DNA from: Verrucomicrobiota bacterium | GTDB lineage: Bacteria; Verrucomicrobiota; Verrucomicrobiia; Opitutales; LL51 | Assembly: GCA_021294815.2 (NCBI GenBank) | Contig: CP095464.1 | Coordinates: 390,001 to 422,000, forward strand | Direction of reading: 5' to 3' | Length of the DNA stretch: 32,000 bases | In this document: positions 1,150-16,593 of the stretch, piece after piece | Numbering within the stretch: the stretch's first letter is position 1 | Layout of the letters: every line of letters begins with the position of its first letter | The notes under the pieces: model-generated | What the model was told of the DNA's origin: nothing | Database searches by the model: none | The model's input: only the letters and a program-made list of their open reading frames with translations | Program-made: the position numbers and the translations under genes

Positions 1150-2490
1150 ATGTTTGACATCGATTTTAATGGTTTATATGGGCAGTAAGTACGCGGAAGC
1201 CCGAAAGGCAGTTACACGCTGGAGAACCACATCTGAAACGATCCAAGCTGGGAACTACACATTTATTGTGACGACACGCCCCGCATCTGAAAGTTTTTGG
1301 AATTCACAAAAAAAGGTGCTTGTGAGCCTAGAGCCGTTAGAGGACGTTTCGTCACCCGTGGCCCTTGCGTTTAGGGATCGCTGGATCGTTGCGAAGTTGC
1401 TCAAAAAAAATCCGGCCCTGTTAAACACAATTTTACAGCTTATCGATTCCATCGACTTCCATTGCTTAACACCTAATGATTTGGGTACGCTCAAGCAACT
1501 GGACAGGATCTATAGCCATTGGAAAATGCCGAAAGAACTCAAAGAATCGCTACGCGAGCACGCTGTCACGGAGATATTGCAAAACCAAAACGCGCTCAAA
1601 TCGGTCTTTGCTTGCATGGATTCTATCAACCCTGCCCATCTGCAAAAGAGAAATAAATGGGCAATGGAACAATTGAGAAAAATTGCCCACAACCCGCAAA
1701 TACCTCTTGCAATCGAGTCGAGGAGACAATCCTTGAGGGAGTCTACGTAGTCGTTAGAGAGATCGGTAATCGCGCGGTAGGATATTTATATGCAATACCA
1801 AGGAGCATTACGGATAAGATGGTAGGGGAAGGCTCTTACACAGTTGATCTAGCTACATCCCGGGAAGACTTTCGAAAAAGGGTCGAGGAAATCAATTTTT
1901 ATGCTCAGAACGAACATTCTCAGAAAGGCATTTCCTTTAATATTCAGCAAAATGGCGACTTCCTCTACTGCGATGTTCCCTTAGATCTCAACCCCTTAGA
2001 TTTGGAAAACGACACATTTTCGCACAATCGCCTTATCGTCTTTAACCAAAAAGTGAATCAAACATAGAATGATAGAATTCCCGAAGAAATGATAAAGCGC
2101 ATCGGTCAGATAACCAAACGGCTAACAGACTACATCAAAAATAAGAGTGACATATCAGAAGAAACAGTCAGCCAATTTGCTCAAGAAATTGAAGAGATTG
2201 CAACAGCTGTAGCCCTTCGCCTTCCCATAATGGACCAAATACGGTTCGAAGAAAGTATACTCTACGCCTTTGGTACCTTACCTAAAGCGGATGACCTATT
2301 TCGCATTTTTACGGGTAAAACCATCGGAGCCCTTCAAAATGTAACACGGACAAAATTGGCTCGCGAGAAAATCGATAAGACACTTCCGCATTGTAGAGCT
2401 GCACTCGAAAAGGCTCAAGCAAAGATTGCTGAAAGTAAACTCATGAGAGGAGCGCATAGACACACGACTGCCACGCGTTTTGCTCGATAA
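1150..2490 (+). pseudogene. P1: disrupted paralogue of the P-family orphan repeat protein
   Basis: ATG at 1150 gives MFDIDFNGLYGQ*, matching the P4 N-terminus MSYIDFNNLYEQLGSKYAE. An 8-nt length difference at about 1180 shifts the frame into ORF 1154..1750. A second frame change at about 1715-1745 leads into ORF 1657..2067. An in-frame TAG at 2065-2067 sits where P3 has TGG (QT*NDRIPEE vs QPWNERTIDE), and ORF 2089..2490 follows. Confidence 0.7.
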
Positions 2491-2539
2491 GTTTCGACGG
2501 TGTCGCCATTGCTGGGTTTAATGTTGTATTATTAAAAAT

Positions 2540-2557: not shown

Positions 2558-5107
2558 ATGTCCATCACGAATGCGAGTTCACGCTACGATCCTAGACAAG
2601 TTATAAGGCAATACGGGAATCTCAAAAAAGACGTCGCCAATAAAGAGGAAGCGTTCGGAACAATGAACGTTACTGAAAACCTAGCAATTTGCATGGCGAA
2701 GGATCGAGGCAAAAAGGGAAAGATCTCGGACGACTCTGGGAAGTACATCATCCTTAAAGGCCAACAACCGGTGAAAAACCGTAGCTCTGTCGATGGGTCC
2801 AGCGTCCTTGAATCCTTCCAATACAAAATATCCTTCAAAAATCGGAGAGAACTCGCCAAACTGCTGCAAGATCCGAAACTACTCGAAACAACTCTCCATC
2901 TCATGGAACGAGCCGATAAACTTAAAGATTCCGGAGCGGTAACAGAACTACAAAAGATTGCCGATAACCGCAAAGCACCCCCGGCACTCAGAAGGGCAAT
3001 TCGCCAAAAACTGGACACAATTTCCAAATCATCAGAGCGTGCTCCTGCACCTGTGGACTTGCAAACCTCTTCCCCCTCTCAGGACAGCGCAAACGTAGGC
3101 AAGAAAACCAGAAGCATCGCTATTGAACCCCAGTCTGCACCCATATTTAATGGAACAATTTCTGAAAAAAGTCGCCAACAGTTGCAATCTGCCAATTTGC
3201 TACAAATCGTCCAACAACTCCAGGATGCGATGAATTTTTCCAAACTCACAGTGCAAAGCATAGCAGAAATAAAAATACAATTTGAGGAAAGAGAGAAAAA
3301 TAAGGAAGATGAGTTGCCCCTTGAGGACGCAATGGTAAAACTCGGGTACATTGCCCAGGACCCCAAGACACCCGCTGCTCTTAAGGAAGCAATTCTAGAG
3401 TCCGGCTGCGCGCAATTAGATCCAAACTTCAGGACATTGGCAGATAGCGTTCGCTTTACCTCATCAATCGAACCCAAGAGGTTAAAGCCCGAAGATGTAA
3501 AAAAGCTGCAAGAACTCGGAAATACCCTCGCTTATCCGGAAAGAACTTCTCCTATAGTCCAAAAAGAAATTGCCAAATTTTTCACAAAAATATCGGAATG
3601 GATCCCCGAACTTGCAAAGTCGATCGATCCATCTCACCTAAAGCCGGGCGATGAAAAAGCAATACAGGTCCTCTATGATCTTACTCATAATCCCTCCATA
3701 CCACCTGCAGTCAAAAAAGCGATCCCTCAAAGAAGTTATATACAACTGGGTGCCCAACCGGATCTATTAAGAAAAACCCTTGAGCTCAAAGCTTCGATCG
3801 ATTCTTCTTACCTGAGAGCCGGTGATGCGGCAGGCGTACAAAAAGCGGCAAAAGAGCTTAGCGCGATTCTCAATGATAAAACGGCATCGCTGGAACTTAG
3901 ATCCATAATCCTGAAAACCGGTTGTGCACAGTTGGAATCGTGTTCAGAACAATTAAACCGCTCTCTTGAACTCCTGGCCTCAGTTACCCCTTCCAACTTG
4001 CAAGCAACAGCCCAACAACTCAACACCATTGCCAATGACCTAGCGACTCCACGAATACTCAAGGAAACCATTCTAAGAACCGGGTACTCGCAATTAGAAT
4101 TACACCCAAAACTTCTGCAAGATGTTTTCCGGCTTACGGCCTCACTCGATCCTTCTAACTTGAAAGCGGGAGATGAGAAAACCTTAAAACAACTCACCGA
4201 TATTGCAACTAACTCAGAGACACCCATTATCCTTCAAAAAGCGATTTTCAAATTTCTTGAACCTGCTCACAAACAATTATCGAACGAAGTCCCCCAACTC
4301 ATGGCTTCCATTGACTCCACCGGGCTAAAGAAAGGGGATGAAAAAACAATGGTCAAACTCAATTTTGTTGCCAATAATCCGGCAACACCCCCTAACCTCA
4401 AAGAAGCAATTCTCAAAAAAGTTTACGAAATCTGCAAAGAAGAAGGTGCCCACGCTGCAAAATACGTTTGGGGTGTGCCAGAAGATATTCTCCGCAAGGT
4501 GCCGGTAGAGGGATGCCCTGTAGTTGCGACTGCACGGGATAGTGAAGATTTGCAAAGGCAGCTTCGTGAGGGTTTTGATACAGATAAATTCTCGGACATC
4601 GATGGAGTGAAGTTTGCTTTTGTGGAATCCCCATATACATCGATGCCTAAGAATGCAAATCTCAGATGGAACACTTTCTTGTACTTCAACAGTTCTCGTG
4701 AAGGCGCAAATCAATCATGCCAAGATATCTTCTCACAACTTCATTCTCTTAGAAAGGACCTAGGAAAGTGCTCTACATCGGAGGAACTGGAAGCAATTAA
4801 AGAAAAAGCTTCACATCTTACCAAGATGCTAGAGGACCGTACACCCTACATCCAACACGCAGCGTTTACTTCTAAAGTGCTCAATGAATTTGATCTTCCA
4901 ATAAGTGATGCAGCCCGGATCGAATATGAAGCTAAAACAACTGGTTTTGTGAAACTCTCGGGGATAGCAGCAACGACCCTTAAGGATATAAAGGATAATT
5001 TCACATCACTTAACACCGCGCTCACAGCCGCTGAGAAAAGACTTGACGTTGGTACGGGGCTCACGGATGCACAAAAACAAAAAATGTCGGGGGGGGGAAT
5101 CCTCTAA
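2558..5107 (+). CDS. P2: orphan repeat protein, 849 aa, with about 8 tandem ~55-aa repeats
   Basis: An uninterrupted 849-codon ORF. It shares the family blocks ISFKNRRELAKLLQDPKLL and AAKYVWGVPEDI with P1, P3 and P4. No signal peptide and no known domain recognised. Confidence 0.85.
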   Translation: MSITNASSRYDPRQVIRQYGNLKKDVANKEEAFGTMNVTENLAICMAKDRGKKGKISDDSGKYIILKGQQPVKNRSSVDGSSVLESFQYKISFKNRRELAKLLQDPKLLETTLHLMERADKLKDSGAVTELQKIADNRKAPPALRRAIRQKLDTISKSSERAPAPVDLQTSSPSQDSANVGKKTRSIAIEPQSAPIFNGTISEKSRQQLQSANLLQIVQQLQDAMNFSKLTVQSIAEIKIQFEEREKNKEDELPLEDAMVKLGYIAQDPKTPAALKEAILESGCAQLDPNFRTLADSVRFTSSIEPKRLKPEDVKKLQELGNTLAYPERTSPIVQKEIAKFFTKISEWIPELAKSIDPSHLKPGDEKAIQVLYDLTHNPSIPPAVKKAIPQRSYIQLGAQPDLLRKTLELKASIDSSYLRAGDAAGVQKAAKELSAILNDKTASLELRSIILKTGCAQLESCSEQLNRSLELLASVTPSNLQATAQQLNTIANDLATPRILKETILRTGYSQLELHPKLLQDVFRLTASLDPSNLKAGDEKTLKQLTDIATNSETPIILQKAIFKFLEPAHKQLSNEVPQLMASIDSTGLKKGDEKTMVKLNFVANNPATPPNLKEAILKKVYEICKEEGAHAAKYVWGVPEDILRKVPVEGCPVVATARDSEDLQRQLREGFDTDKFSDIDGVKFAFVESPYTSMPKNANLRWNTFLYFNSSREGANQSCQDIFSQLHSLRKDLGKCSTSEELEAIKEKASHLTKMLEDRTPYIQHAAFTSKVLNEFDLPISDAARIEYEAKTTGFVKLSGIAATTLKDIKDNFTSLNTALTAAEKRLDVGTGLTDAQKQKMSGGGIL
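2849..4425 (+). repeat. Intragenic tandem array of ~55-aa (~165-nt) degenerate repeats inside P2
   Basis: Recurrent pattern L..L.L.ASID.S.LK.GDEK....L..IA.NP.TP..LKEAIL..G..QL. Examples are SIDPSHLKPGDEKAIQVLYDLTHNPSIPPAVKKAI, SLDPSNLKAGDEKTLKQLTDIATNSETPIILQKAI and SIDSTGLKKGDEKTMVKLNFVANNPATPPNLKEAI. P1, P3 and P4 have only about 2 copies. Confidence 0.8.
5089..5097 (+). repeat. G9 homopolymer 8 nt before the P2 stop codon
   Basis: Nine consecutive G at 5089-5097, preceded by the A-rich ACAAAAACAAAAAATG. The frame containing ORF 5125..5601 is already open from the tract itself (GGG GGG GGG AAT CCT CTA AAG...). Confidence 0.9.
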
Positions 5108-5124
5108 AGGAGACAAAGATCCCA

Positions 5125-5934
5125 GTGGATTCAACGGATAAAGCGAAGCAGGAACAGAGAGTATCATTTGCCGCAAATGTTGCCATGCAAGTAAAGACCC
5201 CGTTGGCCAAGACAAGAGATAGAAAGAACTGGGAAAATGAACGTAAAGAAGTCGTTGCCGCGAAAAAAGCAGCACGTCCCAAAGATCCTAATCAGCCACC
5301 CTTACTTCAACTTTCCAAACAATTGACCAGTGCTAATGATTCTTTGGAAGTCGTAGTCTCCTCGATAGAGTCCGGGAAGACACCGAACGGGAAAGCCATT
5401 TCAGCGGAGGAGGTCTCTGTTTTAAAGGAGCGAAAAACCGTCCTAGAGGAACAAACGGCTACCATCAAATTAAGATTGAAGTTTCTCAGCATAAAGTGTC
5501 GACTCCAATGCTCGGGGCGCGACTCGCCTTCACAACCCCCGAACACGAAAACGCCTTGGCGAAAAAACAGGATATTCTCAAACAAAAATTGTCTGCTCTA
5601 GACGAAAAACAACGCCGACTTGCGGATAAGGCAACTGTTTCATCGGGAAAAGCGATAGTGTTCTTTCCATTAGACTCGAAAGCCAAAAAGCCGGAACAAC
5701 AGCTGGCTGCTATAAACAAGCGTATAGAAGAGTTGGACAAAGAAGCAGCTGAGTTAGACCAACAAAAGGCTGATCTCGATCAGCAAATAAAAGATTTGAG
5801 TTTCGAATAGACGGCAGAAAAAGCGTCAGATGACACAAACTTCATGGATACACAAAGGTACAATGCCATCAAGAAGCCAGAGGTCATTGCAGCTACCTCT
5901 CGAAAAACACTATTTACCAAATTTCTTTCAATAA
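5125..5934 (+). pseudogene. Decayed C-terminal tail of P2 (coiled-coil-like), split over three frames
   Basis: ORFs 5125..5601 and 5496..5810 are K/E/Q-rich and overlap in different frames. A third frame ends in ...NFFQ* with CAA TAA at 5929-5934. The same terminal codons and the same 18-nt flank occur at the ends of P3 and P4. Confidence 0.45.
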
Positions 5935-5968
5935 CCTTTGACAACACCTCCGGTATTGCTTCTTCCAA

Positions 5969-6075
5969 GGGGTGTCTTGGTTTCGGCTGGGGACCATAGC
6001 GCATCGTCGCATGCCGGAGATGATGGTTAGCTCCGTAAAAATCCATCAAACTACATTAAATGGCCAAGATAGCGC
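5969..6075 (+). pseudogene. Truncated ssrA (tmRNA) 5' fragment, copy 1
   Basis: GGGGTGTCTTGGTTTCGGCTGGGGACCATAGCGCATCGTCGCATGCCGGAGATGATGGTTAGCTCCGTAAAAATCCATCAAACTACATTAAATGGCCAAGATA aligns with 10007-10110 of the intact ssrA. There are 8 substitutions in the first 87 nt. No T-arm or 3' acceptor strand follows. Confidence 0.85.
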
Positions 6076-6186
6076 TGTTGGTCTCAATGCTAGCCTCAAT
6101 ATTCTCAAGTTTCTAAAAATGCTTCGGGATCTCTGCTGCTTTATTTATAAATATTAATTAAAATTTTTCATTGAATTATTGAAAAT

Positions 6187-6194
6187 TTTATAAA
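6187..6194 (+). promoter_or_regulatory. TTTATAAA box, 10 nt upstream of the P3 ATG (a second copy lies at 6144-6151)
   Basis: GAAAATTTTATAAATAATAGCCTT-ATG. Spacing and flanks match the P2 box, and there is no Shine-Dalgarno. Confidence 0.4.
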
Positions 6195-6204
6195 TAATAG
6201 CCTT

Positions 6205-8028
6205 ATGACTGACGTTGATTTTCATAATTTCGATCGGCAGCCCATCGGGCAATATGCAGAGGTCGCAAATATCAAAGCACAACAGATGACCTCATCAAAG
6301 GTTATCGAAGCCGGTAATTATGTGTTTACAGTTACGATGTCCCCGCGCTCCAAGTGGTCCTGGTGGCAACACGAAGAAGGCGTTCTCTCCTTAGGCACCC
6401 CGGACGAGCGAGATATATTTCCAGCTGAAATCCCTTTCAAAAATAAAAAAGAGCTAAGTCAACTACTTCAAGCACCTCAATTGTTGGGAATGACCCTGGA
6501 GCTTATCAGCTGGATCGATTTCGATTATCCGAGAAGAAGTCATCTAGAAGCACTGAATGAATTGAATGAGATTTGCAGAAATCCCCAAGCACCGCTGATA
6601 CTATGTGCATACATCCAAAAGTATCAAGTCTCAGAATTACTCAGCAATCCGGGATTACTCAATTGGACCCTTGGTTTTACAGAATCCATCAATGATTCTC
6701 ATTTAGAATCCAAGGATATCGAATCTGCAAAACACATTGGCGCAGTTATCAGAGCTCCCGGAACCCCCTCTGCAATCAGGGAAATTGCCCTGAAGAAAAC
6801 TTATGCGATTCACAAAGTCGCTATCGGTCGCGCAGTGGAATGTGCCTATGGAATCCCTCAAAAGATTATGAACCAAACTCAGGGCGAGGGCAGTTATAGG
6901 GTTATATATACGCAGCCTAATCAGAAACTCGAAAAGGAACTTCGAGAACACTCGTCGCTTACAAGTACCCTCAGTGCTGCCCGCAATAAAGTAGCAGAAT
7001 TATTTTACCAAATGGGATCTGCCAATTATCACGAGAGACTTGATTCTGCGGTAATAGCTTATAGTGACTTGATTATTCAGGTGCTTGCAGACGGCAAGTA
7101 TAACAAAACAATGGGCAATCGCGCGGTAATTCAGGAGCTCAATGCCAGTAAAGAACGGATCTCCACAACACTGACACAAGAACTTTCAACCTACACAAAG
7201 AATCACTCAGCACTCTGCCAGGACCTTCAAAGTTTTGAAAAAAGGATGAGAGCATTCGAGAATGAACTTTTGCAGGTGCTCCTGCGTGTCCCCAATGGAT
7301 ATCAATACCAGTTGAATATTCAAGAAGCTGAGGGTTTCATGTACTGCGACATTCCCCTCTCCGATGAAATAGAAACGCCATTCGAAACCAATACGCTCAT
7401 TATCGCAGACACGCATCTTGACCAGCCTTGGAATGAAAGAACAATCGACGAAATCAGAGAAGAAATTGTTTTTGTTCGAGGGAAGCTTGAAAAGTACCTA
7501 CAACACTATAAAGGCGGTAGAGTCGATTTAGAAAGTCCCAGTGAATATACACAAAAAATCGCTCAGAAAAGTGTTGAATATACACTCAAACTAATCAGCG
7601 ATTACTTCCCTAAATTGCACCATGAAGCCGAAAAACGCCTATTTATTTGGGATTCAAATAGAATAGACCGAGATGTCCTCAATGCTTTTGGAACCCTTAA
7701 GGCATCCCACCAGAGTAGAACTCCAGGCCAAGAGTTTATACAGAAAATCAATACTGCACTCAATAATCTTGTGATAGAATGGGAGCAGTGTTCGAGGGTC
7801 GCTAAACAGGTAAGAGAAGATCTCATGCCGCAAAAAACAGTTCCAGCGATGCAAATGGAACCTGTAGGGAAACAAACAGATTATATAAACTATACGCGTT
7901 CAAAAGTTGATCAAGACTTCCAGAGACACGTGAATACGTTCATAAATTCCGAAGGGAAAATTGACACAGATAAAACCGTCCCAAGTTTTCAGGATCCGGC
8001 AGCGACATCTATGGACTTCGCCCAATAA
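6205..8028 (+). CDS. P3: orphan repeat protein, 607 aa; the only fully intact family member
   Basis: A single ORF carrying every family block: MTDVDFHNF...YAE, AGNYVFTVT, FKNKKELSQLLQAPQLL, 2 repeats, AVECAYGIPQKI, GFMYCDIPLS (7336-7356), LNAFGTLKAS and the C-terminal FAQ*. No signal peptide. Confidence 0.9.
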   Translation: MTDVDFHNFDRQPIGQYAEVANIKAQQMTSSKVIEAGNYVFTVTMSPRSKWSWWQHEEGVLSLGTPDERDIFPAEIPFKNKKELSQLLQAPQLLGMTLELISWIDFDYPRRSHLEALNELNEICRNPQAPLILCAYIQKYQVSELLSNPGLLNWTLGFTESINDSHLESKDIESAKHIGAVIRAPGTPSAIREIALKKTYAIHKVAIGRAVECAYGIPQKIMNQTQGEGSYRVIYTQPNQKLEKELREHSSLTSTLSAARNKVAELFYQMGSANYHERLDSAVIAYSDLIIQVLADGKYNKTMGNRAVIQELNASKERISTTLTQELSTYTKNHSALCQDLQSFEKRMRAFENELLQVLLRVPNGYQYQLNIQEAEGFMYCDIPLSDEIETPFETNTLIIADTHLDQPWNERTIDEIREEIVFVRGKLEKYLQHYKGGRVDLESPSEYTQKIAQKSVEYTLKLISDYFPKLHHEAEKRLFIWDSNRIDRDVLNAFGTLKASHQSRTPGQEFIQKINTALNNLVIEWEQCSRVAKQVREDLMPQKTVPAMQMEPVGKQTDYINYTRSKVDQDFQRHVNTFINSEGKIDTDKTVPSFQDPAATSMDFAQ

Positions 8029-8071
8029 CCTTTGACAACACCTCCGGTATTGCTTCTCTTCGGGCGAACCT

Positions 8072-8220
8072 GGGGGTGTCTTGGTTTCGACTGGGAACCG
8101 TAACGCATCGTCGCATGCCGGAGATGATGGTTGGCTCCGTAAAAATCCATCAAACTCTATAAATGGCAAAAATCATGTCATCGCGTTCGTCTTCGGTAGC
8201 AGAGGTATGAGCAAAGCCGA
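8072..8220 (+). pseudogene. Truncated ssrA (tmRNA) 5' fragment, copy 2
   Basis: The first 88 nt differ from 10006-10093 of the intact ssrA at one position (G vs A at nt 23). Homology continues through the tag-coding region with about 9 substitutions plus a 1-nt indel. The tag stop is lost (..MSKAERSNIG..) and no 3' half follows. Confidence 0.9.
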
Positions 8221-8321: not shown

Positions 8322-9962
8322 ATGAGTTACATCGATTTTAACAATTTATATGAACAGCTTGGCAGTAAGTACGCAGAAGTGCAAAAAGCGGTTACACGTT
8401 GGAGAACTTCATCTGAAACCGTTCAAGCGGGCGAATATGAATTCACGATTACAACACTTCCTGCTTCTGAAGATTTCTGGAGTTCCTCAAAGGTACTCAT
8501 AAGTTCAAAGCCTCTGCAAAAATCTACTATGCAAACTGCGCTGGTTGCCTCAAACCGCAATGAAGTCCAAAAGTTACTGCAGGATCCGGTTCAAGTGAAG
8601 GATATCCTTAAGCTTTTCGCTTTGATCCACTCCGCTGATTGCTCAACCCTTAGAGGGCAGCAGGAAATACTTGGCGCACTCAACGCTCTCAAGTGGACTG
8701 CCTACGAAGACCCAACGACACCGGAAATATTTCGAAAAGTTCTCAAAAAGCAGGCAATTTCAGTACTCCTGCCAAATATAGAACTATTGGAAAGTACATT
8801 CGAACTCATGAACTCAATCGATCCTTTAAAACTAAAGAAGGATGACGTAGCGACAATGACCGCACTCCGTGAGACTGTTGACGATCCTAAAACACCCCTG
8901 TCGCTCAAAGAAGCAGCTAAACAAAAAGTGGTTGATGTTAGCATAGCAATAAATCCTAAAGCAATTGAATGCGATTATGCAATACCTGCGAATATTGTGG
9001 ATAAAATATGCAGCGATAAAAATGGGGCCTATGCGGTTAGGTATAATGCACCCATGGAAGGATTCAGAAGTAAAACTCCAAAAAGATGAAACACGTAGTA
9101 AGGCATTACAGGAAAGTCGGAAAGGAATTGTGGAGTCATTTACTCAATCCAATGGCACAATCGACCAGAACCTTACTGAGAAGATCCAAGCCTATGGAGA
9201 AAAAAATGATCGAGCCACTCATGATGGAAGAAAAAGGCAAATACCCACCATCAATACAGGAATCCTTCCAAACAGAATTAAAAGCCTATGGTCAAAAAGC
9301 CGCCCAAGTACTGCAAGAAGAATTGCAAAACTACAAAGGCGACACTGCATCGCTCGATGATTGCCTCCAAGCTTATGAAAAAAAGATGCGAACATTCATA
9401 AACGAGCTTCTGAAGACCGGGCAATCTTCCTCAACAGTTAATCAAGAGGGAAATTACTTGTATTGTGATATGCCAGTCGATATAGAGGTTATCAAGAGGC
9501 ACGATTATTCCCCGAACGAATTTAATACTGTCGCAGTCGTCAATACATGCTTGCAAGAACCTTTGACCGATAAAACCTTAGATGGTCTCAATGAAGAACT
9601 TAAAAACTCAGAGAACAGCTAACAGATTGCAAAACAAAGGAACAGCTGCAGACAATTGAGGAGCGTTATCAAGAGGTTAATAAGAAATAGAAAACCGCTC
9701 CCAATTTCGCGAACAATGCTTAACAAATTTAGCGACCATGCAGGCTTTCGGACTCCCCGAAGGCGATGATCCATTTAACACCCGAACGACTCCAGCTACG
9801 AAACACCTAACGCAGATGAAGCTTCTGTTTGAAAGGACGGATAAAGAACAAGGAAAATATAGTGCCGAACTTGCCAAAGCCCAAGAAAGACTTGATGCAA
9901 ACAAAGCTGCTCCTCAGCCTCAGGATTCAGCAGCTTTCTCTTCCGCAAACGTTGTTCAATAA
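8322..9962 (+). pseudogene. P4: disrupted paralogue of the P-family orphan repeat protein
   Basis: Family blocks are spread over at least four frames or segments: 8322..9089, part of 8965..9360, 9086..9622, a short segment LREQLTDCKTKEQLQTIEERYQEVNKK*, and 9738..9962. Frame changes lie at about 9060-9070, 9190-9290 (an A7 run at 9200-9206 is one candidate site) and 9600-9740. Confidence 0.7.
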
Positions 9963-10005
9963 CCTTTGACAACATCCCCTCTTTCATTTCCCTCTAAGCA
10001 CGGTT

Positions 10006-10387
<382 letters not shown>

Positions 10388-10489
10388 TATTTTTGTCAGC
10401 GTAATGCTCACTTCCATCCATTCCACAGAAAAATCACCTTCTTCCCAAGAATAAATCTAGAGTCAAAATTTACTTATCTTTTTAAAAAA

Positions 10490-10518
10490 CTTGCATCTTG
10501 TGAAAAACTACTACCCTG
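10490..10518 (+). promoter_or_regulatory. Conserved upstream element of cassette copy 1 (CTTGCATCTTGTGAAAA-N4-CTACCCTG)
   Basis: The 17-mer and the 8-mer recur with identical spacing at 12565-12593, upstream of cassette copy 2. Each is followed by an AAGGAAA Shine-Dalgarno-like sequence and ATG. Function unknown. Confidence 0.35.
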
Positions 10519-10539
10519 CCTCGCTGAAAAGGAAATTTT

Positions 10540-11025
10540 ATGGCTAAAAAAATGAATACTAAAATAAATAAATTGGCGCTCTGCGCGTTGTTGTCGGCGG
10601 GGGGACTGTCTGCAGTGAACGGGGATGACAAAGTTTCGGATTTGCTGGGGAAGGATAGCGTTCAGCTTTTCAATCGATTGCAAACTCCTGAAAGATGTGA
10701 AACAGCACTCAAAAAGGCAGGCAAGTTGCTCGCAAAAGTGAAAAAACAAGAAACGAGGAACGCGCTTACACGCCTCATTGAGAAATTGAATTTTTTGTGT
10801 AATTTTTGGAGCTGGTTCTGCAGTGTCGAACCCGATGAGCTCGATGTTGAGGCAATTTTCTCGGAAGATGTCTCTGGAGATAAGGATCTAAAGAGCGCGG
10901 AAGAATTAATTTTTTTGCGGGACGCCGGCTGGGGAAGACAGGAAGTAAGGGAAGCCAATGAAGACAATGGAGATTGTAAGGACAAATTCGAGAAGCTGCA
11001 GGAAAAGTGTAAAAAGTTCATTTAA
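10540..11025 (+). CDS. small Sec-signal protein (161 aa); cassette copy 1, gene A
   Basis: The N-terminus KINKLALCALLSAGGLSAVNG/DD looks like a signal peptide. It is a paralogue of 12616..13083, sharing FLRD.(G/S)WG and a C-terminal C...C..FI*. The AAGGAAA Shine-Dalgarno-like sequence sits upstream. No known domain. Confidence 0.8.
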   Translation: MAKKMNTKINKLALCALLSAGGLSAVNGDDKVSDLLGKDSVQLFNRLQTPERCETALKKAGKLLAKVKKQETRNALTRLIEKLNFLCNFWSWFCSVEPDELDVEAIFSEDVSGDKDLKSAEELIFLRDAGWGRQEVREANEDNGDCKDKFEKLQEKCKKFI

Positions 11026-11034
11026 TTCCTAGGC

Positions 11035-12516
11035 ATGAAAAGATTCCGGTTTGTTGCATCATTTATGCTTTTCCTCGGGTTGTTCCTTGGAGAAGGTGGT
11101 GAGTGTGACATCTACATCGCGAATGCAGGGGCTGGAAATTGCGCGTTCGTGCGCTTTTCAGCAGGGGATGGTGATGGGAAACAACTCTACCGAGGCCTGT
11201 GGGTTGACTGCGGTTTTGGCAAGAGGGGCTTCTTTCCTAACGGTTTCAGCTCCTCTAAAGAGTGGAATGATGTTGTTGGAGACTACTTTTTTAGAGAGGA
11301 GGGCGTATCGAGGAAAGTAGGAAAAGAAAATGCGATGTTGTGGGTTACGCATTTGCATGATGATCACATCAATGGGATCTTTTCCATCAATAAGAGTGGT
11401 ATGGCAAGGGGGGAAGCGCCTACTAGTAAGGAGATGGCGACGATAAAAAAGGAAGTAGAAGAGCTTGAGAAGGATGAGGATGGAAAAGATGGGGAGTTAG
11501 TAGAGAAGGAGGAGACTAGTGAACTAGAGGAACTAGAGGGGCAGAAAGAAGAAAAAGGGAGAAAGGAGATTGATGTGGGTTCGATTATTGTTGGTATCGG
11601 CGGAAGTAAGGATGGTTTGCCGAAGTCATCAGGTCGAGCGTTGATTAAGACCTCAGAATCGATCAAGGGAATTCTGAAGGATAAAAGTACCGGAAAGGTG
11701 CTAAAGGTCAGAGTTTGGGGAGAAGGAAGTGAAGCATCTGCCAAGTGTGGTGATATATCCAAGGTGGTGGGTAATTTTTGGGGAGATTTCCCTCGTGAGA
11801 ATATCAAGATGGAACCTCTAATCCCTACGGGTGGATATGAACAAGAGCAAGAGAATCTCGAGGCTAATGATACATCGCTGGTTCTAGGGTTGGAGTATTA
11901 TGGGATTAAAGTGCTCTTTCCTGGGGATGCTCCTGGGAAGATGTGCGATTGTCTGAATCCTGATCAGAAAGGCTTTGTTAAGGATGTTGATATCCTTATC
12001 GCACCTCACCATGGGAGCGAAGGGAAAAAGAATAGTTTGTGGTACTCTAGCAACCGAAGGTTTTGCACAATCGTTTCCGGGGACCCAAGTTATAAGGCTT
12101 GGGGTATACCTGGCCTAGCCAATTATGGGGTTAGGAACCATTCAACACGTTTGGAGGCACCAAGAGCCATTTACTATTCCAATGCCCAAAGGAACGAGGT
12201 TTTGAAGAGCGAGATCGAGTTTCCTGTATTTTGCACGTGGGTCGGTATCGAAGATGAAGATGGAAAGGTTGTAGGTGCCCAAAAGTTTGTTGGATATCAT
12301 ATCAAAATAAACAGTAACGGAAACCGAGAGGATGCAGGGAAGATTAAAGTGTTTGAGATTTTATATAATGACAAAGCCAAGGAAAACGAGACGAGGTATC
12401 CTGAAGAAGAGATATATATCGAAAGACTATCCAAGCGTCGGAAGCTAGAGCTATCGGGAACTTCTGTTCTATTCGAGGTCCCTACGGCCACTGGGGGTGG
12501 CAGCGTGGGGCATTAG
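11035..12516 (+). CDS. secreted metallo-beta-lactamase-fold hydrolase, ComEC/Rec2 C-terminal-domain type (493 aa); cassette copy 1, gene B
   Basis: Signal peptide MKRFRFVASFMLFLGLFLG. MBL motifs are present in order: CDIYIANAGAGNC, LWVDCGFG, WVTHLHDDHINGI (HxHxDH), LFPGDAPG, ILIAPHHGSE and FCTIVSGDPS. It starts 9 nt after gene A. Confidence 0.85.
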   Translation: MKRFRFVASFMLFLGLFLGEGGECDIYIANAGAGNCAFVRFSAGDGDGKQLYRGLWVDCGFGKRGFFPNGFSSSKEWNDVVGDYFFREEGVSRKVGKENAMLWVTHLHDDHINGIFSINKSGMARGEAPTSKEMATIKKEVEELEKDEDGKDGELVEKEETSELEELEGQKEEKGRKEIDVGSIIVGIGGSKDGLPKSSGRALIKTSESIKGILKDKSTGKVLKVRVWGEGSEASAKCGDISKVVGNFWGDFPRENIKMEPLIPTGGYEQEQENLEANDTSLVLGLEYYGIKVLFPGDAPGKMCDCLNPDQKGFVKDVDILIAPHHGSEGKKNSLWYSSNRRFCTIVSGDPSYKAWGIPGLANYGVRNHSTRLEAPRAIYYSNAQRNEVLKSEIEFPVFCTWVGIEDEDGKVVGAQKFVGYHIKINSNGNREDAGKIKVFEILYNDKAKENETRYPEEEIYIERLSKRRKLELSGTSVLFEVPTATGGGSVGH

Positions 12517-12564
12517 CCTCCCCCGGGAAAATAACGTAAAAATTCACATGCCTCATTTAAATGA

Positions 12565-12593
12565 CTTGCATCTTGTGAAAAGCCGCTACCCTG
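12565..12593 (+). promoter_or_regulatory. Conserved upstream element of cassette copy 2
   Basis: The same CTTGCATCTTGTGAAAA-N4-CTACCCTG as at 10490-10518. Confidence 0.35.
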
Positions 12594-12615
12594 GGCCGGC
12601 GACAAAGGAAAACTT

Positions 12616-13083
12616 ATGATCAAAATGAATAAATTGGCGCTTTGTGCGTTATTGTTTTCGGGAGTGCTGTCCGCGGTGAACGGAGACCCAGAGGAGGTCA
12701 AGAACCTACTTGGTTTTGATAGCTTCGACCTTTTCAAAGAGCTAAAAACCGGGAGCAAGTGCAACAGTGTGCTCAAGGAGGTTAAGGATTGTCTTGTGAA
12801 GACAGAGGATATAGAAAAAACGGGTCAGCTTCTGTATCTGGCCGGAGAACTGAACTCTTTACGTGAGTTTTGGGCATGGCTTGACGGGGTTGATCCTAAG
12901 ACTCTTAATGTGGAGCAAATTTTTTCAGAAGATGGCCCCGAAGATCAGGATCTGGGAGCTGATAAGAAATTGATTTTCTTGCGCGATGTCAGCTGGGGAG
13001 AGGATGTTGTAGATGAGGGCGGCAATGAAGGCCTAAGAGAAAAATGCGAAGCTCTAAGAACCAAGTGCAGGGGTTTTATTTAA
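12616..13083 (+). CDS. small Sec-signal protein (155 aa); cassette copy 2, gene A
   Basis: Signal peptide MNKLALCALLFSGVLSAVNG/D. Paralogue of 10540..11025. Confidence 0.8.
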   Translation: MIKMNKLALCALLFSGVLSAVNGDPEEVKNLLGFDSFDLFKELKTGSKCNSVLKEVKDCLVKTEDIEKTGQLLYLAGELNSLREFWAWLDGVDPKTLNVEQIFSEDGPEDQDLGADKKLIFLRDVSWGEDVVDEGGNEGLREKCEALRTKCRGFI

Positions 13084-13095
13084 CCCCACGTTGGC

Positions 13096-14412
13096 ATGAA
13101 GAAATTTTGGTCTGTTTTGTCATGCATCGCTGCTCTGCTTGGACTCGTTCCAGGAAGGGGGGATGAGTGTGATATCTACATTGCCAACGCGGGTGCTGGA
13201 AATTGTATTTATGTGCTCTTTTCGGCACAGGACGCCGCCGGGGATCCAGCTAGCCGAGGTCTGTGGGTTGATTGTGGTTTTGGCAAAAGGGGGCTTGTTC
13301 CCGATGGTTGTGCGAACAACGGCTCGTGGGATAAGGTTGTAGAGGACTATTTTTTCTTTGATGGTGCGATATCGCCGTCTTCAAAAGCAAGCAGAAAGGA
13401 TACGATGCTGTGGATTACGCACCTGCACGAAGATCATGTAGAGAGGGTAAACCTGGTCGGTGAATCAAAGCGTCCGGTGAAAGGCAAAAGTGCCAGGTCG
13501 GTGGGCGTTGGTGCTGTCATCGTTGGTGTAGGTGGTGGGAACAATGATTTACCGATGCAAAGCGGTAACGGGAATCTGATTGGGTTCTCAACGCCAATCC
13601 AAGAAATTTTCAATACGGCTCCCCTAAAGGTGAAAGTCTGGGGGACGGGCCATAGTGCGACCGCATCCAGGCAGGCTATAAGGGGAAAGGTTGAGGGATT
13701 CTTAGGGGAGTTCCCTTATAAGGTTGATAGGCGGGAGAATATCAGGTTGAAACCTTTGATTCCTTCAAGTCAGTACAAAGCAACGGAGAAAGGCACGCAC
13801 CAAGTCAATCTTGTAGCTAATGATACATCGCTGGTCCTAGGGTTGGAGTATTATGGTGTTAAGATACTCTTCCCCGGAGACGCGCCAGGGGAAATGCATG
13901 ACTGTCTGAGGAAAGCTGACCGGAAGTTTGTTAAGGATGTCGACATACTCGTTGCACCTCACCATGGGAGTGAGGCGGAGAGGAACGGTTCGTGGTACTC
14001 CAGCAACCGGAGGTTTTGTACGATCATCTCCGGAGACCCGAGTTATTCAAACTGGGGGCTGCCGGTCCTAGCCAGTTACGGTGTCAGGGATAATTCGATA
14101 TATCTTAAGGACAAGAGGTCCATTTACTACTCGAATGCGTTGAAAGAAGTTTGCACCCTTAAAACTCGAGTGCCTGTTTTTTGCACGTGGGTCGGTGTCG
14201 AAGATAAAAATGGAGAGGTTGTAGGTGCTGAAAAGTTTGTCGGGTACCACATCAAAATCAACAGCAAAGGCGGGAGAGAGGATGCGGGGAAGATTAAAGT
14301 GTTTGAGATTTTATATGACGGAGCAAAAGCAGGTAGGGCAAGATATTCAGAAAAGGAGATAAAGATCGTCAGGGAAAAGAAAACAGATCAAAGGAAGTGC
14401 CTGTTACTTTAG
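13096..14412 (+). CDS. secreted metallo-beta-lactamase-fold hydrolase, ComEC-type (438 aa); cassette copy 2, gene B
   Basis: Signal peptide MKKFWSVLSCIAALLGLVPG. Motifs: CDIYIANAGAGNC, WITHLHEDHVERV, LFPGDAPG, ILVAPHHGSE. Paralogue of 11035..12516 but lacks its E/K-rich insert. Confidence 0.85.
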   Translation: MKKFWSVLSCIAALLGLVPGRGDECDIYIANAGAGNCIYVLFSAQDAAGDPASRGLWVDCGFGKRGLVPDGCANNGSWDKVVEDYFFFDGAISPSSKASRKDTMLWITHLHEDHVERVNLVGESKRPVKGKSARSVGVGAVIVGVGGGNNDLPMQSGNGNLIGFSTPIQEIFNTAPLKVKVWGTGHSATASRQAIRGKVEGFLGEFPYKVDRRENIRLKPLIPSSQYKATEKGTHQVNLVANDTSLVLGLEYYGVKILFPGDAPGEMHDCLRKADRKFVKDVDILVAPHHGSEAERNGSWYSSNRRFCTIISGDPSYSNWGLPVLASYGVRDNSIYLKDKRSIYYSNALKEVCTLKTRVPVFCTWVGVEDKNGEVVGAEKFVGYHIKINSKGGREDAGKIKVFEILYDGAKAGRARYSEKEIKIVREKKTDQRKCLLL

Positions 14413-14545: not shown

Positions 14546-15856
14546 CTAAAGATGTGCGATTGCGCTTTCGATATCGAGGAGTGCAATTCTAAGTTTGATG
14601 AAGGCGTCTTCTTGTTCTTGTGTAATGCGTTGTGCATCGACACTCATGAAATCGCGGATTTTTGCGATGTTTTCTTGGATCGTAACACGAGATTCTGCTA
14701 CAGTCTTGGCCATTGTCCAACCTTCGGAAGTGGTACATGGTCCTTTAAGCCCCCCTTCGGTAACACTTGTGGGGACAGCTTCCGTCGCCGAATTCGCTGC
14801 CGTATTGATCGCAGAAAGACAGTCACCAATCTCTGTAGCTGCACTGAGCTCTGCTGCACTGGCTCCGGTCACGAGCGTTTTCACTTCTTCGTACTGTTTC
14901 TTAATGGTGTCACAGTCCGCTTTCGATACAGTAAATGTTAGGTCTTTCACTTTCTCGTTTTTTGTGGCAGCATTTTCAATGGCAGTCATCACGGCTAAAC
15001 GCTTTGCGCCATCGGCAATCCGCCAAATGTAATCAATTGCGGCATAGTTGTAGGCGTCGGGTTTCGTGAGGTCGAGCTTGTAACGCGTATCTGCACCGGC
15101 AATCTCTGCCGCTGTCTTATGGCAATCATCACATTCAAGGACACTACCACAACTAGGACATTCCGTTGTGAGTGTTTGCCCGCTGTCTGAAATTGGAGCG
15201 AAATTCGGTGATAGAACAACTTCGACAACAGTTACCTCGCCTTTCATTACTGCGATGTGAAAAATCGTCCGCCCCAGATAGTCTTCCGAGTTGAGATTGA
15301 TATTCTTTGCCTTTAATAATATGCGCAAAGGGTTGTCGTTATTCGTTGAATTCAGAAGCCAGCTTTCGCCATAGTACTTCGCCGCAAAGAACAATGGCGA
15401 TTCGCCATTCATCGTACGGCGGTTGATGTCGATACGGCCATCGTCGACAATTAATTGCAAACACTTCGCCGAATTGATCGCCGCCGCGTGCGCCGCATTA
15501 TAGCGTAAAATCGTTTCCGCCGTGACGCTCGCATTTGTGTTCTTTAAGATCGAATCCAGTGCATCAGGCAAACTACTGCAAGCCGCCAAAATGATCGCCG
15601 GAAGCCGAAATCCAACAAGTACCTTCGTGTTAGGGGCATTGCCCTTTGCTCCGACTACAGTATTGAGCAAATTATCGAGTTGATCGATGGCATATTCCGT
15701 GCCGCTGTACCAGAAACGCGCCGCTCTCTTTTGATCACTATCCCACGTGCTGATTTGTGGAATGGCGACACTTGGTGTTAGTACGCTGGCGTTGTTTGCA
15801 TTTGAGACATTGAGAGATCCCAATAGTAAAAATGACGCTAAATAACGTTTATCCAT
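14546..15856 (-). CDS. secreted ankyrin-repeat protein (436 aa)
   Basis: Signal peptide MDKRYLASFLLLGSLNVSNA. ANK-like repeats include NGESPLFFAAKYYG...LLKAKNINLNSEDYLGRTIFHIAVMKGEVTVVEVVL. It also has a CxxC-x6-CxxC knuckle (CPSCGSVLECDDC). Confidence 0.8.
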   Translation of the reverse strand: MDKRYLASFLLLGSLNVSNANNASVLTPSVAIPQISTWDSDQKRAARFWYSGTEYAIDQLDNLLNTVVGAKGNAPNTKVLVGFRLPAIILAACSSLPDALDSILKNTNASVTAETILRYNAAHAAAINSAKCLQLIVDDGRIDINRRTMNGESPLFFAAKYYGESWLLNSTNNDNPLRILLKAKNINLNSEDYLGRTIFHIAVMKGEVTVVEVVLSPNFAPISDSGQTLTTECPSCGSVLECDDCHKTAAEIAGADTRYKLDLTKPDAYNYAAIDYIWRIADGAKRLAVMTAIENAATKNEKVKDLTFTVSKADCDTIKKQYEEVKTLVTGASAAELSAATEIGDCLSAINTAANSATEAVPTSVTEGGLKGPCTTSEGWTMAKTVAESRVTIQENIAKIRDFMSVDAQRITQEQEDAFIKLRIALLDIESAIAHL

Positions 15857-15879
15857 CCTATTTCCCTTCCCCTTAAATT

Positions 15880-16593
15880 TTAATTTCCTGACATGATCGG
15901 CTCTCGTACCGTGTTAAATGCATTCTGCAACTCTGTAAATTTGGTGTCATTGGTAATGTTATTGACCGTATTTTTATGTTCTATAATTTTGACCAATAAC
16001 GCTGGTGTCTCGCCGCGTTTGTTAGTCGATTCAAGGTCGAGCTCTTCCCCATAAAGTTCGATAATCTTTCGAGCAGCAACGTAATTCCCCGCCTTAATGG
16101 CGACCATGAGTGCTGTATCGCCCTCCCGATTTTTTCGGTTAATATCAAGACGATTATCCTGCTGCAGGAGCATAATATTTGTCATCTTATTTTCATCAGA
16201 ATTAAGAGCTGCTTCATGCAACGCTGTCCAGCCCAGAGAAGTCTCAAATGGAATGATCATATCATTCGTTCCCTCCAATAAAAGTTGTAGGTAGGTTTTC
16301 GAATCGGTGCCCGACTTAACACTATTGCTTGCAGCCGCAAAGAGCGCAATTGGTAAATAATATCCAAAGTAAACCATCGAATTCGCATCCGTGCTTTTCG
16401 CGAATAAGTTTTTTAAAGTTTCAGACTGGTCGCCCATCAAATCCGTGACCTTGTAAACCGTTTTACCGATTGCGATCCGTGCATCTAAAAGTCGACGATC
16501 ATTCCAACTTTTAAAGCAGGGAACACTTGCCTGTGTGTATGCGGCAAGACCCAATATCACCCCACCGATTGTTATCAGTTTTTTCATACCCAT
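15880..16593 (-). CDS. secreted ankyrin-repeat protein (237 aa)
   Basis: Signal peptide MGMKKLITIGGVILGLAAYTQA. ANK repeats include GWTALHEAALNSDENKMTNIMLLQQDNRLDINRKNREGDTALMVAIKAGNYVAARKII...TNKRGETPALL. Its N-terminal region is paralogous to 14546..15856, and a 23-nt gap to that gene suggests an operon. Confidence 0.85.
   Translation of the reverse strand: MGMKKLITIGGVILGLAAYTQASVPCFKSWNDRRLLDARIAIGKTVYKVTDLMGDQSETLKNLFAKSTDANSMVYFGYYLPIALFAAASNSVKSGTDSKTYLQLLLEGTNDMIIPFETSLGWTALHEAALNSDENKMTNIMLLQQDNRLDINRKNREGDTALMVAIKAGNYVAARKIIELYGEELDLESTNKRGETPALLVKIIEHKNTVNNITNDTKFTELQNAFNTVREPIMSGN

Follow-up and report, generated by a model that had tools for sequence, protein, structure and literature searches.

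A tandem array of orphan genes punctuated by 5′ fragments of ssrA, and their probable homogenization by recombination with the live gene

Partial copies of transfer RNA (tRNA) and transfer-messenger RNA (tmRNA) genes are usually read as the scars of integrase-borne islands, and of the 3919 islands collected by Islander, 3760 have 3′ fragments and 159 have 5′ fragments (PMC4383910). The other described systems that come close are the concerted evolution of ribosomal RNA (rRNA) operons, tuf duplicates and tandem paralogues, the silent and expressed pilin cassettes of Neisseria, and two-piece tmRNAs. This report concerns ssrA, the gene for tmRNA, and two truncated 5′ copies of it in a 32,000-nucleotide (nt) stretch of DNA, hereafter the window, which corresponds to positions 390,001-422,000 of the forward strand of contig CP095464.1 (GCA_021294815.2), a metagenome-assembled genome (MAG) of Verrucomicrobiota, Opitutales. 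Upstream of the live ssrA stand four members of one orphan gene family, P1 to P4, all in the same orientation. The account that we favour, with moderate rather than high confidence, is that the fragments are spacers of an ancient P-gene array ending at ssrA, and that their near-identity to the live gene is kept by recombination. That near-identity is probably due to recombination with the live gene and not to a function of the fragments as RNA, judging from patterns of divergence; from the same patterns we infer either gene conversion or cycles of unequal crossover.

The live gene is a full-length tmRNA (RF00023 model positions 1-374, 147.8 bits). Copy 2 matches it at 87 of 88 positions (8072-8159 against 10006-10093) and copy 1 at 79 of 87 (over 5969-6055), exactly the figures reported in an earlier reading of the letters without database searches (the sequence-only reading). 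Copy 1 departs from the live gene at nt 1, where the G is missing, and at nt 19, 23, 25, 29, 32, 62, 86 and 87. Two checks that the earlier reading had proposed, an Infernal tmRNA scan and a comparison of divergence by segment, bear out its observation. With the stretch cut so as to permit 3′-truncated alignment, the two fragments align to RF00023 positions 1-94 only, copy 2 at 44.0 bits with an E of 7e-17 and copy 1 at 29.6 bits with an E of 8e-11. These values lie below the gathering score of 47, short of a full-length tmRNA. By segment, copy 2 differs from the live gene at 18 of 49 positions upstream (37%), by one substitution and one indel over nt 1-94 (2%) and at 10 of 54 positions in the tag region (18%). 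Both flanks differ significantly from nt 1-94 (Fisher p = 4e-8 upstream and 8e-4 for the tag), and the longest identical run, 65 nt among 30 differences over 197 sites (permutation P = 6e-5), is an overlong identity tract within diverged flanks, as is found under concerted evolution. Simple co-duplication followed by neutral drift cannot explain this contrast, and the statement that either gene conversion or selection is needed thus stands.

Both fragments lack the T-arm and the 3′ acceptor strand, as had been noticed, and blastn with a word size of 7 found no copy of these parts elsewhere in the window. Their tag frames, quoted correctly as GKNHVIAFVFGSRGMSKAERSNIG... and GQDSAVGLNASLNILKF..., have lost the AA-stop ending. 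The claim that both fragments keep GGTTTCGAC fails for copy 1, which reads GGTTTCGGC and has no G1. The repeat to which the fragments belong has its start some 50 nt before the first nt of ssrA, where the P gene ends in its stop codon (CAATAACCTTTGACAAC...); it comprises a ~35-nt leader and extends, decayed, through the tag region to about nt 147 (8023-8217); in copy 2, homology to the live gene stops 5 nt short of the tag stop codon. The regions upstream of the two copies are of one type (type A), identical at 35 of 35 positions between spacer 1 (5929-5968) and spacer 2 (8023-8057), and the live gene is preceded by a second type (type B) that differs from type A at 18 of 49 positions and is 74% identical to it over the 35-nt block (repeat family D7).

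The comparison set comprises five other samples, which represent three or four related genomes. The closest relative, the sole match of a scan of genome collections, is an Opitutales MAG from SRR14411247 whose synonymous divergence (dS) from the window is 0.16-0.51. A second clade, in which synonymous sites are saturated with respect to the window clade, was reached via the contigs of P-family proteins and is represented by Logan contigs from SRR33454233, SRR33454264, SRR30592952 and SRR30592954. These contigs begin or end within the repeat, as expected of repeats within a genome; for this reason the second-clade copies that were compared are all spacer fragments. For the window strain itself there is a separate assembly (L061), 99.9% identical to the window, and SRR28373616 looks to contain this strain. 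A metagenome scan with a 22-mer of pseudoknot 1 (PK1) gave zero matches, and one with ssrA nt 1-20 gave 47 single-copy tmRNAs of other taxa, which served only as outgroups. A literature search on tmRNA 5′ fragments, tandem duplication, gene conversion and the MAG locus tag found no precedent.

The P paralogues are only weakly similar, with 27-41% protein identity, and two of them, P1 and P4, are frameshifted pseudogenes, both as the earlier reading had it. Pfam found no domain in any P protein (a match of P0013 is a coiled-coil false positive), and an exhaustive HMMER search of 1.84 billion representatives returned only 15 members of the family, apparently all from this Opitutales clade. Array units measure 1.9-3.8 kb (1934-3779 nt) and hold one gene each. 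A common layout is found in the relative and in the second clade, namely a P gene, the block AACCTTTGACAAC, a variable leader and an ssrA 5′ piece. All P genes with visible flanks are followed by (C/T)(A/G)ATAACCTTTGACAAC, a leader and GGGGGTGTCTTGGTTTCGAC..., and many also have the remainder of an ssrA 5′ piece upstream. Since this layout is shared across clades with saturated divergence, the array is ancient and general in the clade. Moreover, P1, P3 and P4 have orthologues at matching array positions in distant lineages.

The intact gene P3, LW808_001915 on an 878-kb contig, allows the pace of this divergence to be gauged. Its orthologue in the relative is 81% identical, with a ratio of nonsynonymous to synonymous divergence (dN/dS) of 0.21 and a dS of 0.48, and the SRR33454233 orthologue, with 60% identity, follows an AT-rich leader homologous to that of P3. 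By its dN/dS, P3 is under purifying selection; P genes are thus not unusually fast evolving, and the paralogues are old. These values bear on the proposal that the duplications are recent and that the P genes evolve fast, or that an assembly or polishing artefact homogenized the repeats. The window is indeed a MAG, and the frameshifts of P1 and P4 could in principle be sequencing errors. However, besides the low dN/dS of P3, the paralogues have separate orthologues in other lineages, the long housekeeping genes of the window are intact, the independent assemblies of the five other samples show the same repeats, with contigs breaking inside them, and the same-strain assembly is nearly identical to the window. 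We regard this explanation as very improbable. Its narrower form, raised in the sequence-only reading, in which recent duplicates seem diverged through frameshift-induced misalignment, is refuted by a dS of 0.16-0.5 to the relative and by orthologues across saturated lineages.

Several patterns point to recombination as the cause of the near-identity. First, the near-identical block ends at nt 25 before P0007 (L053), at about nt 60, in the middle of PK1, before P0011 (L056), and at nt 94 in copy 2 and before P0008 (L054), and beyond each of these ends lies a decayed yet alignable remainder of ssrA. The tract ends are variable and independent of functional elements, as in concerted evolution. 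Second, the relative carries its P3 orthologue, a type-A leader and a full ssrA in succession, which is the arrangement of the window less one unit of 1934 nt, joined within the ssrA repeat; it has neither P2 nor P4. The type-A region of spacer 2 resembles the region 5′ of the relative's live ssrA (0 of 35 and 2 of 14 differences). The type-B leader of the window is in turn 27/28 identical to the sequence 3′ of the P4 orthologue P0009 of SRR30592952, which makes the order P4, type B, ssrA ancestral and implies that the relative lost the P4 unit when copy 2 recombined with the live gene. Units thus change in number through breakpoints inside the repeats.

Third, variants of the live gene recur in the fragments. 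C33 and U37, in the 5′ strand of tmRNA helix P2, are present in the live gene, copy 1 and copy 2 of the window and in the live gene of the relative; in the live gene their partner is CGAUGCG of the 3′ strand, which the fragments lack. The relative's fragment after P1 has U33 and a 1-nt deletion at position 37, and second-clade copies have U33 and C37 in five of five copies visible at each position. C33/U37 are therefore putative lineage variants common to the live gene and both copies of the window, in a comparison in which spacer copies stand for the second clade. Fourth, spacers differ in freshness. In the window, the spacer that precedes P3 still resembles the live gene at about 90%; in SRR33454233 it is heavily decayed, and the P3 leaders of the two are homologous. 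After P1, the relative has CAATAA, a leader and a decayed ssrA 5′ fragment (L005 5072-5225) that is about 80% identical, with PK1 damaged; the window counterpart is reduced to GTTTCGAC, its conserved block, leader and ssrA nt 1-12 being deleted, at a junction confirmed in L061. Finally, the tag regions before P4 in the window and SRR30592952 show 15 of 54 mutual differences and 9-10 differences each from the live tag (counted by eye), and in both spacers homology to the live tag ends at the identical point. This star-like pattern implies that a live-like sequence renewed each of them once the lineages had parted.

Of the two options left by the earlier reading, gene conversion is therefore the one favoured, by the varying block ends, the apparently shared live variants, the gain or loss of whole units within the repeat and the contrast between fresh and decayed spacers. 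Together the comparisons indicate concerted evolution driven by recombination, in which the live ssrA would be the master copy and copies leaving the process decay. The array may have originated by a tandem duplication with its right endpoint within ssrA at about nt 150, so that each unit would comprise, after the P gene proper, its stop codon, the block AACCTTTGACAAC, a ~35-nt leader and roughly 150 nt from the 5′ end of ssrA. P genes, leaders and tag-region parts have since diverged, and homologous recombination, with the live gene or among spacers, would have overwritten the 5′ parts of the spacers time and again, near-identity persisting wherever sufficient homology survives. Spacers that escape overwriting decay or are deleted. 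The extreme 5′ module, made up of the block, the leader paired to nt 1-8 and the U-rich nt 9-17, may also be selected as a transcription signal.

The arrangement of fragments and cargo also recalls a series of integrations, in which P cassettes would insert one after another at the 5′ part of ssrA, either through an integrase or by a Campbell-type event, each mobile or foreign unit bringing its own ssrA 5′ copy and displacing the older 5′ part upstream, in the manner of islands that have 5′ tDNA fragments. Similarity to the live gene would then reflect the identity block of the attachment (att) site and the order of arrival. Several observations agree with such insertions. Fragments of the 5′ end stand on the upstream side of the live gene and in its orientation, which is an island signature, and an intact tDNA with same-orientation end fragments on the correct side is what Islander looks for. 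Similarity to the live gene falls with distance, from copy 2 to copy 1 to the post-P1 fragment, and units are present or absent between genomes. Since nt 1 to about 88 of live tmRNAs are far more conserved than the tag, the 5′ part of a donor could match while its tag differs. However, the tyrosine integrase that Islander expects in each island was absent from all open reading frames (ORFs) of the window by Pfam, which found no integrase or recombinase domain in the units or elsewhere in the window. An AlphaFold model of P3 (helical, mean predicted local distance difference test score 58.7, confident only at residues 30-220) gave no PDB fold match at E <= 0.001. The units, at 1934-3779 nt against the at least 2 kb asked of island cargo, hold a single gene each. 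P2 and P4 are absent from the relative, and P1, P3 and P4 have positional orthologues in distant lineages, which points to ancestral units and not to recent arrivals. Furthermore, a single crossover alone cannot make a sharp jump in divergence between two parental sequences, and the tag-like region on the unit side is homologous to ssrA, which an att site does not predict. Serial insertion is accordingly held to be improbable.

Other points weigh against homogenization by the live gene. All data are MAGs and short contigs. The polarity of C33/U37 is inferred from one old fragment in the relative, and it is not certain which spacers are orthologous, since the P genes are themselves mosaic (the N-termini of P0009 and P4 differ). 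The type-A block is identical at 35 of 35 positions in copy 1, copy 2 and the relative, beside a P3 gene with a dS of 0.48, and since the live gene of the window carries type B, conversion by it cannot explain this identity, which suggests some selection on the block. Lastly, strong identity ends at about nt 85-94, where conservation between distant live tmRNAs also ends, so that constraint could have shaped part of what looks like a conversion tract in copy 2. The distant live tmRNAs that were compared lose conservation near nt 85-90, their first ~88 nt being conserved far above the tag.

These points touch on a different explanation, namely that selection keeps the ssrA-derived 5′ module as a terminator, as a promoter or 5′ untranslated region of the next P gene downstream, or as a stable SmpB-binding RNA. 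As a terminator, a hairpin between the leader and nt 1-8 followed by CUUGGUUUC would end the transcript of the upstream P gene. Across 12 spacers from lineages saturated at synonymous sites, the block AACCTTTGACAAC hardly varies, the identity of type A among the two copies and the relative holds despite a dS of 0.2-0.5, and L053, the most decayed spacer with an intact front, retains the block and nt 1-25. Set against nt 1-8 (GGGGGUGU), the leader octamer ACAYCYYC can pair in 95% of cells, whereas slid registers give 41-72%, and the only variants seen are C/U facing G and A/G facing U; the leader hairpin was flagged as terminator-like, and the leader fold of copy 2 has a z of -2.4. The octamer pairing could represent a pairing of the leader in pre-tmRNA or a terminator hairpin, and the hairpin with the U-rich nt 9-17 resembles a weak terminator, as predicted from these folds. 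However, covariation on both sides of the octamer pairing was not found, promoter and terminator consensus hits were no commoner than in shuffled sequence, and the fragments alone fold no better than shuffles. Outgroup ssrA promoters have a canonical TTGACA-N17-TATA, and in the window lineage no -10 element was found at canonical spacing from TTGACA in comparison with them. In its type-A form the octamer contains CACCUCC, the sequence of the tmRNA 3′ acceptor strand, and it stands directly after TTGACA.

Beyond nt 25, no element is common to all spacers. Copy 1 has lost universally conserved positions, with G1 and the GAC gone, L056 has lost half of PK1, and L053 and L063 have nt 26-95 decayed; the spacer front itself is missing at the P1/P2 junction of the window, and in L063 and the post-P1 fragment of the relative it has decayed. 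The lost elements differ from fragment to fragment, which makes a tmRNA-like function unlikely, and the suggestion that the fragments act as decoys for SmpB or RNase P, or as expressed tmRNA-like RNAs, is not supported, with one spacer keeping nt 1-25 only, PK1 broken in another and the P1/P2 spacer nearly deleted. The companion suggestion, that they donate a promoter or 5′ leader to the next P gene, is weakened, since the best-preserved fragment, copy 2, precedes the pseudogene P4, P2 is intact without an upstream fragment, and P genes carry their own conserved AT-rich leader; it survives for the 35-nt upstream block, which may have such a role, its conservation being above what neutral drift would leave. 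A promoter or terminator role confined to the first ~60 nt is possible on this comparative evidence. Selection on the spacers as the general cause of their identity is, on the whole, rather doubtful. A combined view also appears unlikely: the spacer would be a co-opted module, in which the invariant block, the acceptor-mimicking leader and the U-rich nt 9-17 serve as a terminator-promoter or insulator between P genes and the identity to ssrA serves as a permanent RecA-dependent anchor by which putative host-interaction (P) cassettes beside ssrA would undergo gain, loss and shuffling without an integrase.

The features of the locus are listed in Table 1.

Table 1. Coordinates within the window of the P-gene array, the ssrA copies and the adjoining features.
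Feature	Position	Strand	Basis or remark
P1, first array member, pseudogene	1150-2490	+	ORF list, tblastn
GTTTCGAC, remnant of the P1/P2 spacer	2493-2500	+	Comparison with relative, L061
P2, 849-amino-acid ORF with internal repeats of the P-family module	2558-5107	+	ORF list; six matched stretches
Degenerate 800-nt tail of P2, in-frame end ...NFFQ*	5108-5928	+	
Spacer 1 upstream: last P codon and stop (CAATAA), block CCTTTGACAAC, type-A leader with 10-nt deletion	5929-5968	+	
Copy 1, ssrA nt 2-94, 9 differences from live gene	5969-6061	+	Alignment, cmscan
Copy 1 tag region, strongly decayed	after 6061, to ~6125	+	Alignment
AT-rich leader of P3 (6171-6204) and intact P3 gene (6205-8028), 607 amino acids	6171-8028	+	ORF list
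Spacer 2 upstream: stop codon, conserved block, type-A leader	8023-8071	+	
Copy 2, ssrA nt 1-94, 1 substitution (G23) and 1-nt deletion relative to live gene	8072-8164	+	Alignment, cmscan
Copy 2 tag region, diverged: 10/54 substitutions, no indel	8165-8217	+	Alignment
P4, pseudogene with at least 2 frameshifts (frame changes at ~9086 and ~9622)	8322-9962	+	ORF list, tblastn
Type-B upstream region of live ssrA: shared conserved block, different leader	9957-10005	+	Alignment
Octamer pairs with ssrA nt 1-8	9972-9979 with 10006-10013; 8038-8045 with 8072-8079		All leader types
Live ssrA (tmRNA), tag GKDNVIALDFGSGVMSKAA	10006-10388	+	ARAGORN; Rfam RF00023, 147.8 bits
Second tandem duplication just 3′ of ssrA: two units, each with a 161/155- and a 493/438-amino-acid gene	10481-14412	+	Families D2-D6, D11

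The individual P genes differ in their state of preservation. P1 is disrupted by the loss of 8 nt after codon 12, by a change of frame near 1717 and by a stop codon at 2067, and its orthologue P0005 in the relative is intact, with 427 amino acids and an N-terminus that is 82% identical. P2 is built of about six copies of a helical P-family module of ~100-160 amino acids, and a search of 5.8 billion proteins for its orthologue returned only P2 itself. Its tail consists of broken Lys/Glu-rich ORFs in three frames, and only over the last ~45 codons does the frame lead to the conserved ...Q* end. The tail probably represents what is left of the 3′ portion of an additional P gene or of a longer one. 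The P4 orthologue P0009 (L055) is intact, with 483 amino acids and ~50% identity over the C-terminal three quarters, within which identity ranges over 48-76%; the N-terminal modules (~70-130 amino acids) are unrelated, and the N-terminus of P4 resembles that of P1 (41%). The P genes are mosaic in these alignments, which suggests that paralogues exchange modules. Across lineages with saturated synonymous sites, the first ~40 nt of P3-type ORFs (ATGACTGACGTTGATTTTCATA...) show 2-3 differences (window 6205-6245, L053 510-550, L063 13124-13164), in proteins that are 38-60% identical overall, and the ORF starts of P1, P3 and P4 are 72-78% identical (family D9). This conserved start may be an N-terminal signal, a translation-initiation region or another recombination anchor. 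On the opposite strand, two ORFs of 89 amino acids each with a TTG start (5780-6049 and 7900-8169) run from the ssrA fragments into P 3′ ends; they were judged by-products, having differing relative starts and unrelated P 3′ ends and being absent at the live gene.

The tmRNA of this clade has an aberrant tag, GKDNVIALDFGSGVMSKAA, of 19 amino acids with a Gly resume codon (window 10100-10159); the nearest outgroup tmRNAs are ~80% identical over nt 1-88 and have the canonical tag ANEEYALAA. Downstream of ssrA, the units of the second tandem duplication are 73-86% identical, encode signal-peptide-like proteins and show a strongly positive GC skew of up to +0.40. The relative has one hybrid unit in place of this pair, so ssrA is flanked on both sides by arrays that change in whole units. 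Further downstream lie two adjacent ankyrin-repeat genes of 436 and 237 amino acids (14546-16593, minus strand), with many orphan ORFs around; such a gene content would fit a bacterium living in association with a eukaryotic host.

What the locus illustrates is that ssrA 5′ fragments can arise and persist in a vertically inherited tandem array without an integrase, and island-finding logic would mis-call such an array. If our preferred account of recombination with the live gene holds, an essential single-copy RNA gene acts as conversion master for non-functional neighbours, with the decayed copies of sister lineages as internal controls. The locus also marks a rare orphan family of an ankyrin-repeat-carrying Opitutales clade, which turns over in whole units beside ssrA. 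Should the 5′ module prove to be a transcription signal borrowed from ssrA, it would represent a new kind of exaptation.

Among known systems, two-piece tmRNAs offer one parallel. CACCUCC, upstream of GGGGGUG, can pair with the 5′ acceptor strand, and there is a weak match to the permuted Rfam model; however, there is no T-arm and no CCA end here, and the live gene is a normal one-piece tmRNA. A permuted two-piece tmRNA (RF04321) was considered and dismissed: its scores of 18.2 and 19.6 bits fall short of the threshold of 47, and a stemless insert of 43 nt takes the place of the T-arm. The pilS/pilE system of Neisseria has diverged coding cassettes with short conserved recombining sequences between them. 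In contrast, P genes are full length and have individual starts and leaders, nothing points to a single site of expression, and evidence for programmed variation of this kind was not found at the P array. With the islands in tRNA and tmRNA genes (Islander, PMC4383910; the ssrA islands of Dehalococcoides, PMC3146451), the locus shares an intact ssrA, same-orientation partial copies on one side, cargo between them and tandem units. It differs from them in having 5′ instead of the usual 3′ fragments, no integrase, one gene per unit and vertically inherited paralogues, and in fragments that run into a decayed tag region and do not end at a crossover core. The concerted evolution of short repeats, as in rRNA operons, tuf duplicates and tandem paralogues, has in common with this array patchy identity within diverged flanks, apparently shared lineage variants and copy-number breakpoints inside repeats. 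Here, however, the homogenized segment is a non-functional 5′ piece, of ~95 nt, of a single-copy essential RNA gene, the live gene would be the master, and what separates the repeats is a set of protein genes that have diverged deeply and are not copies of one gene.

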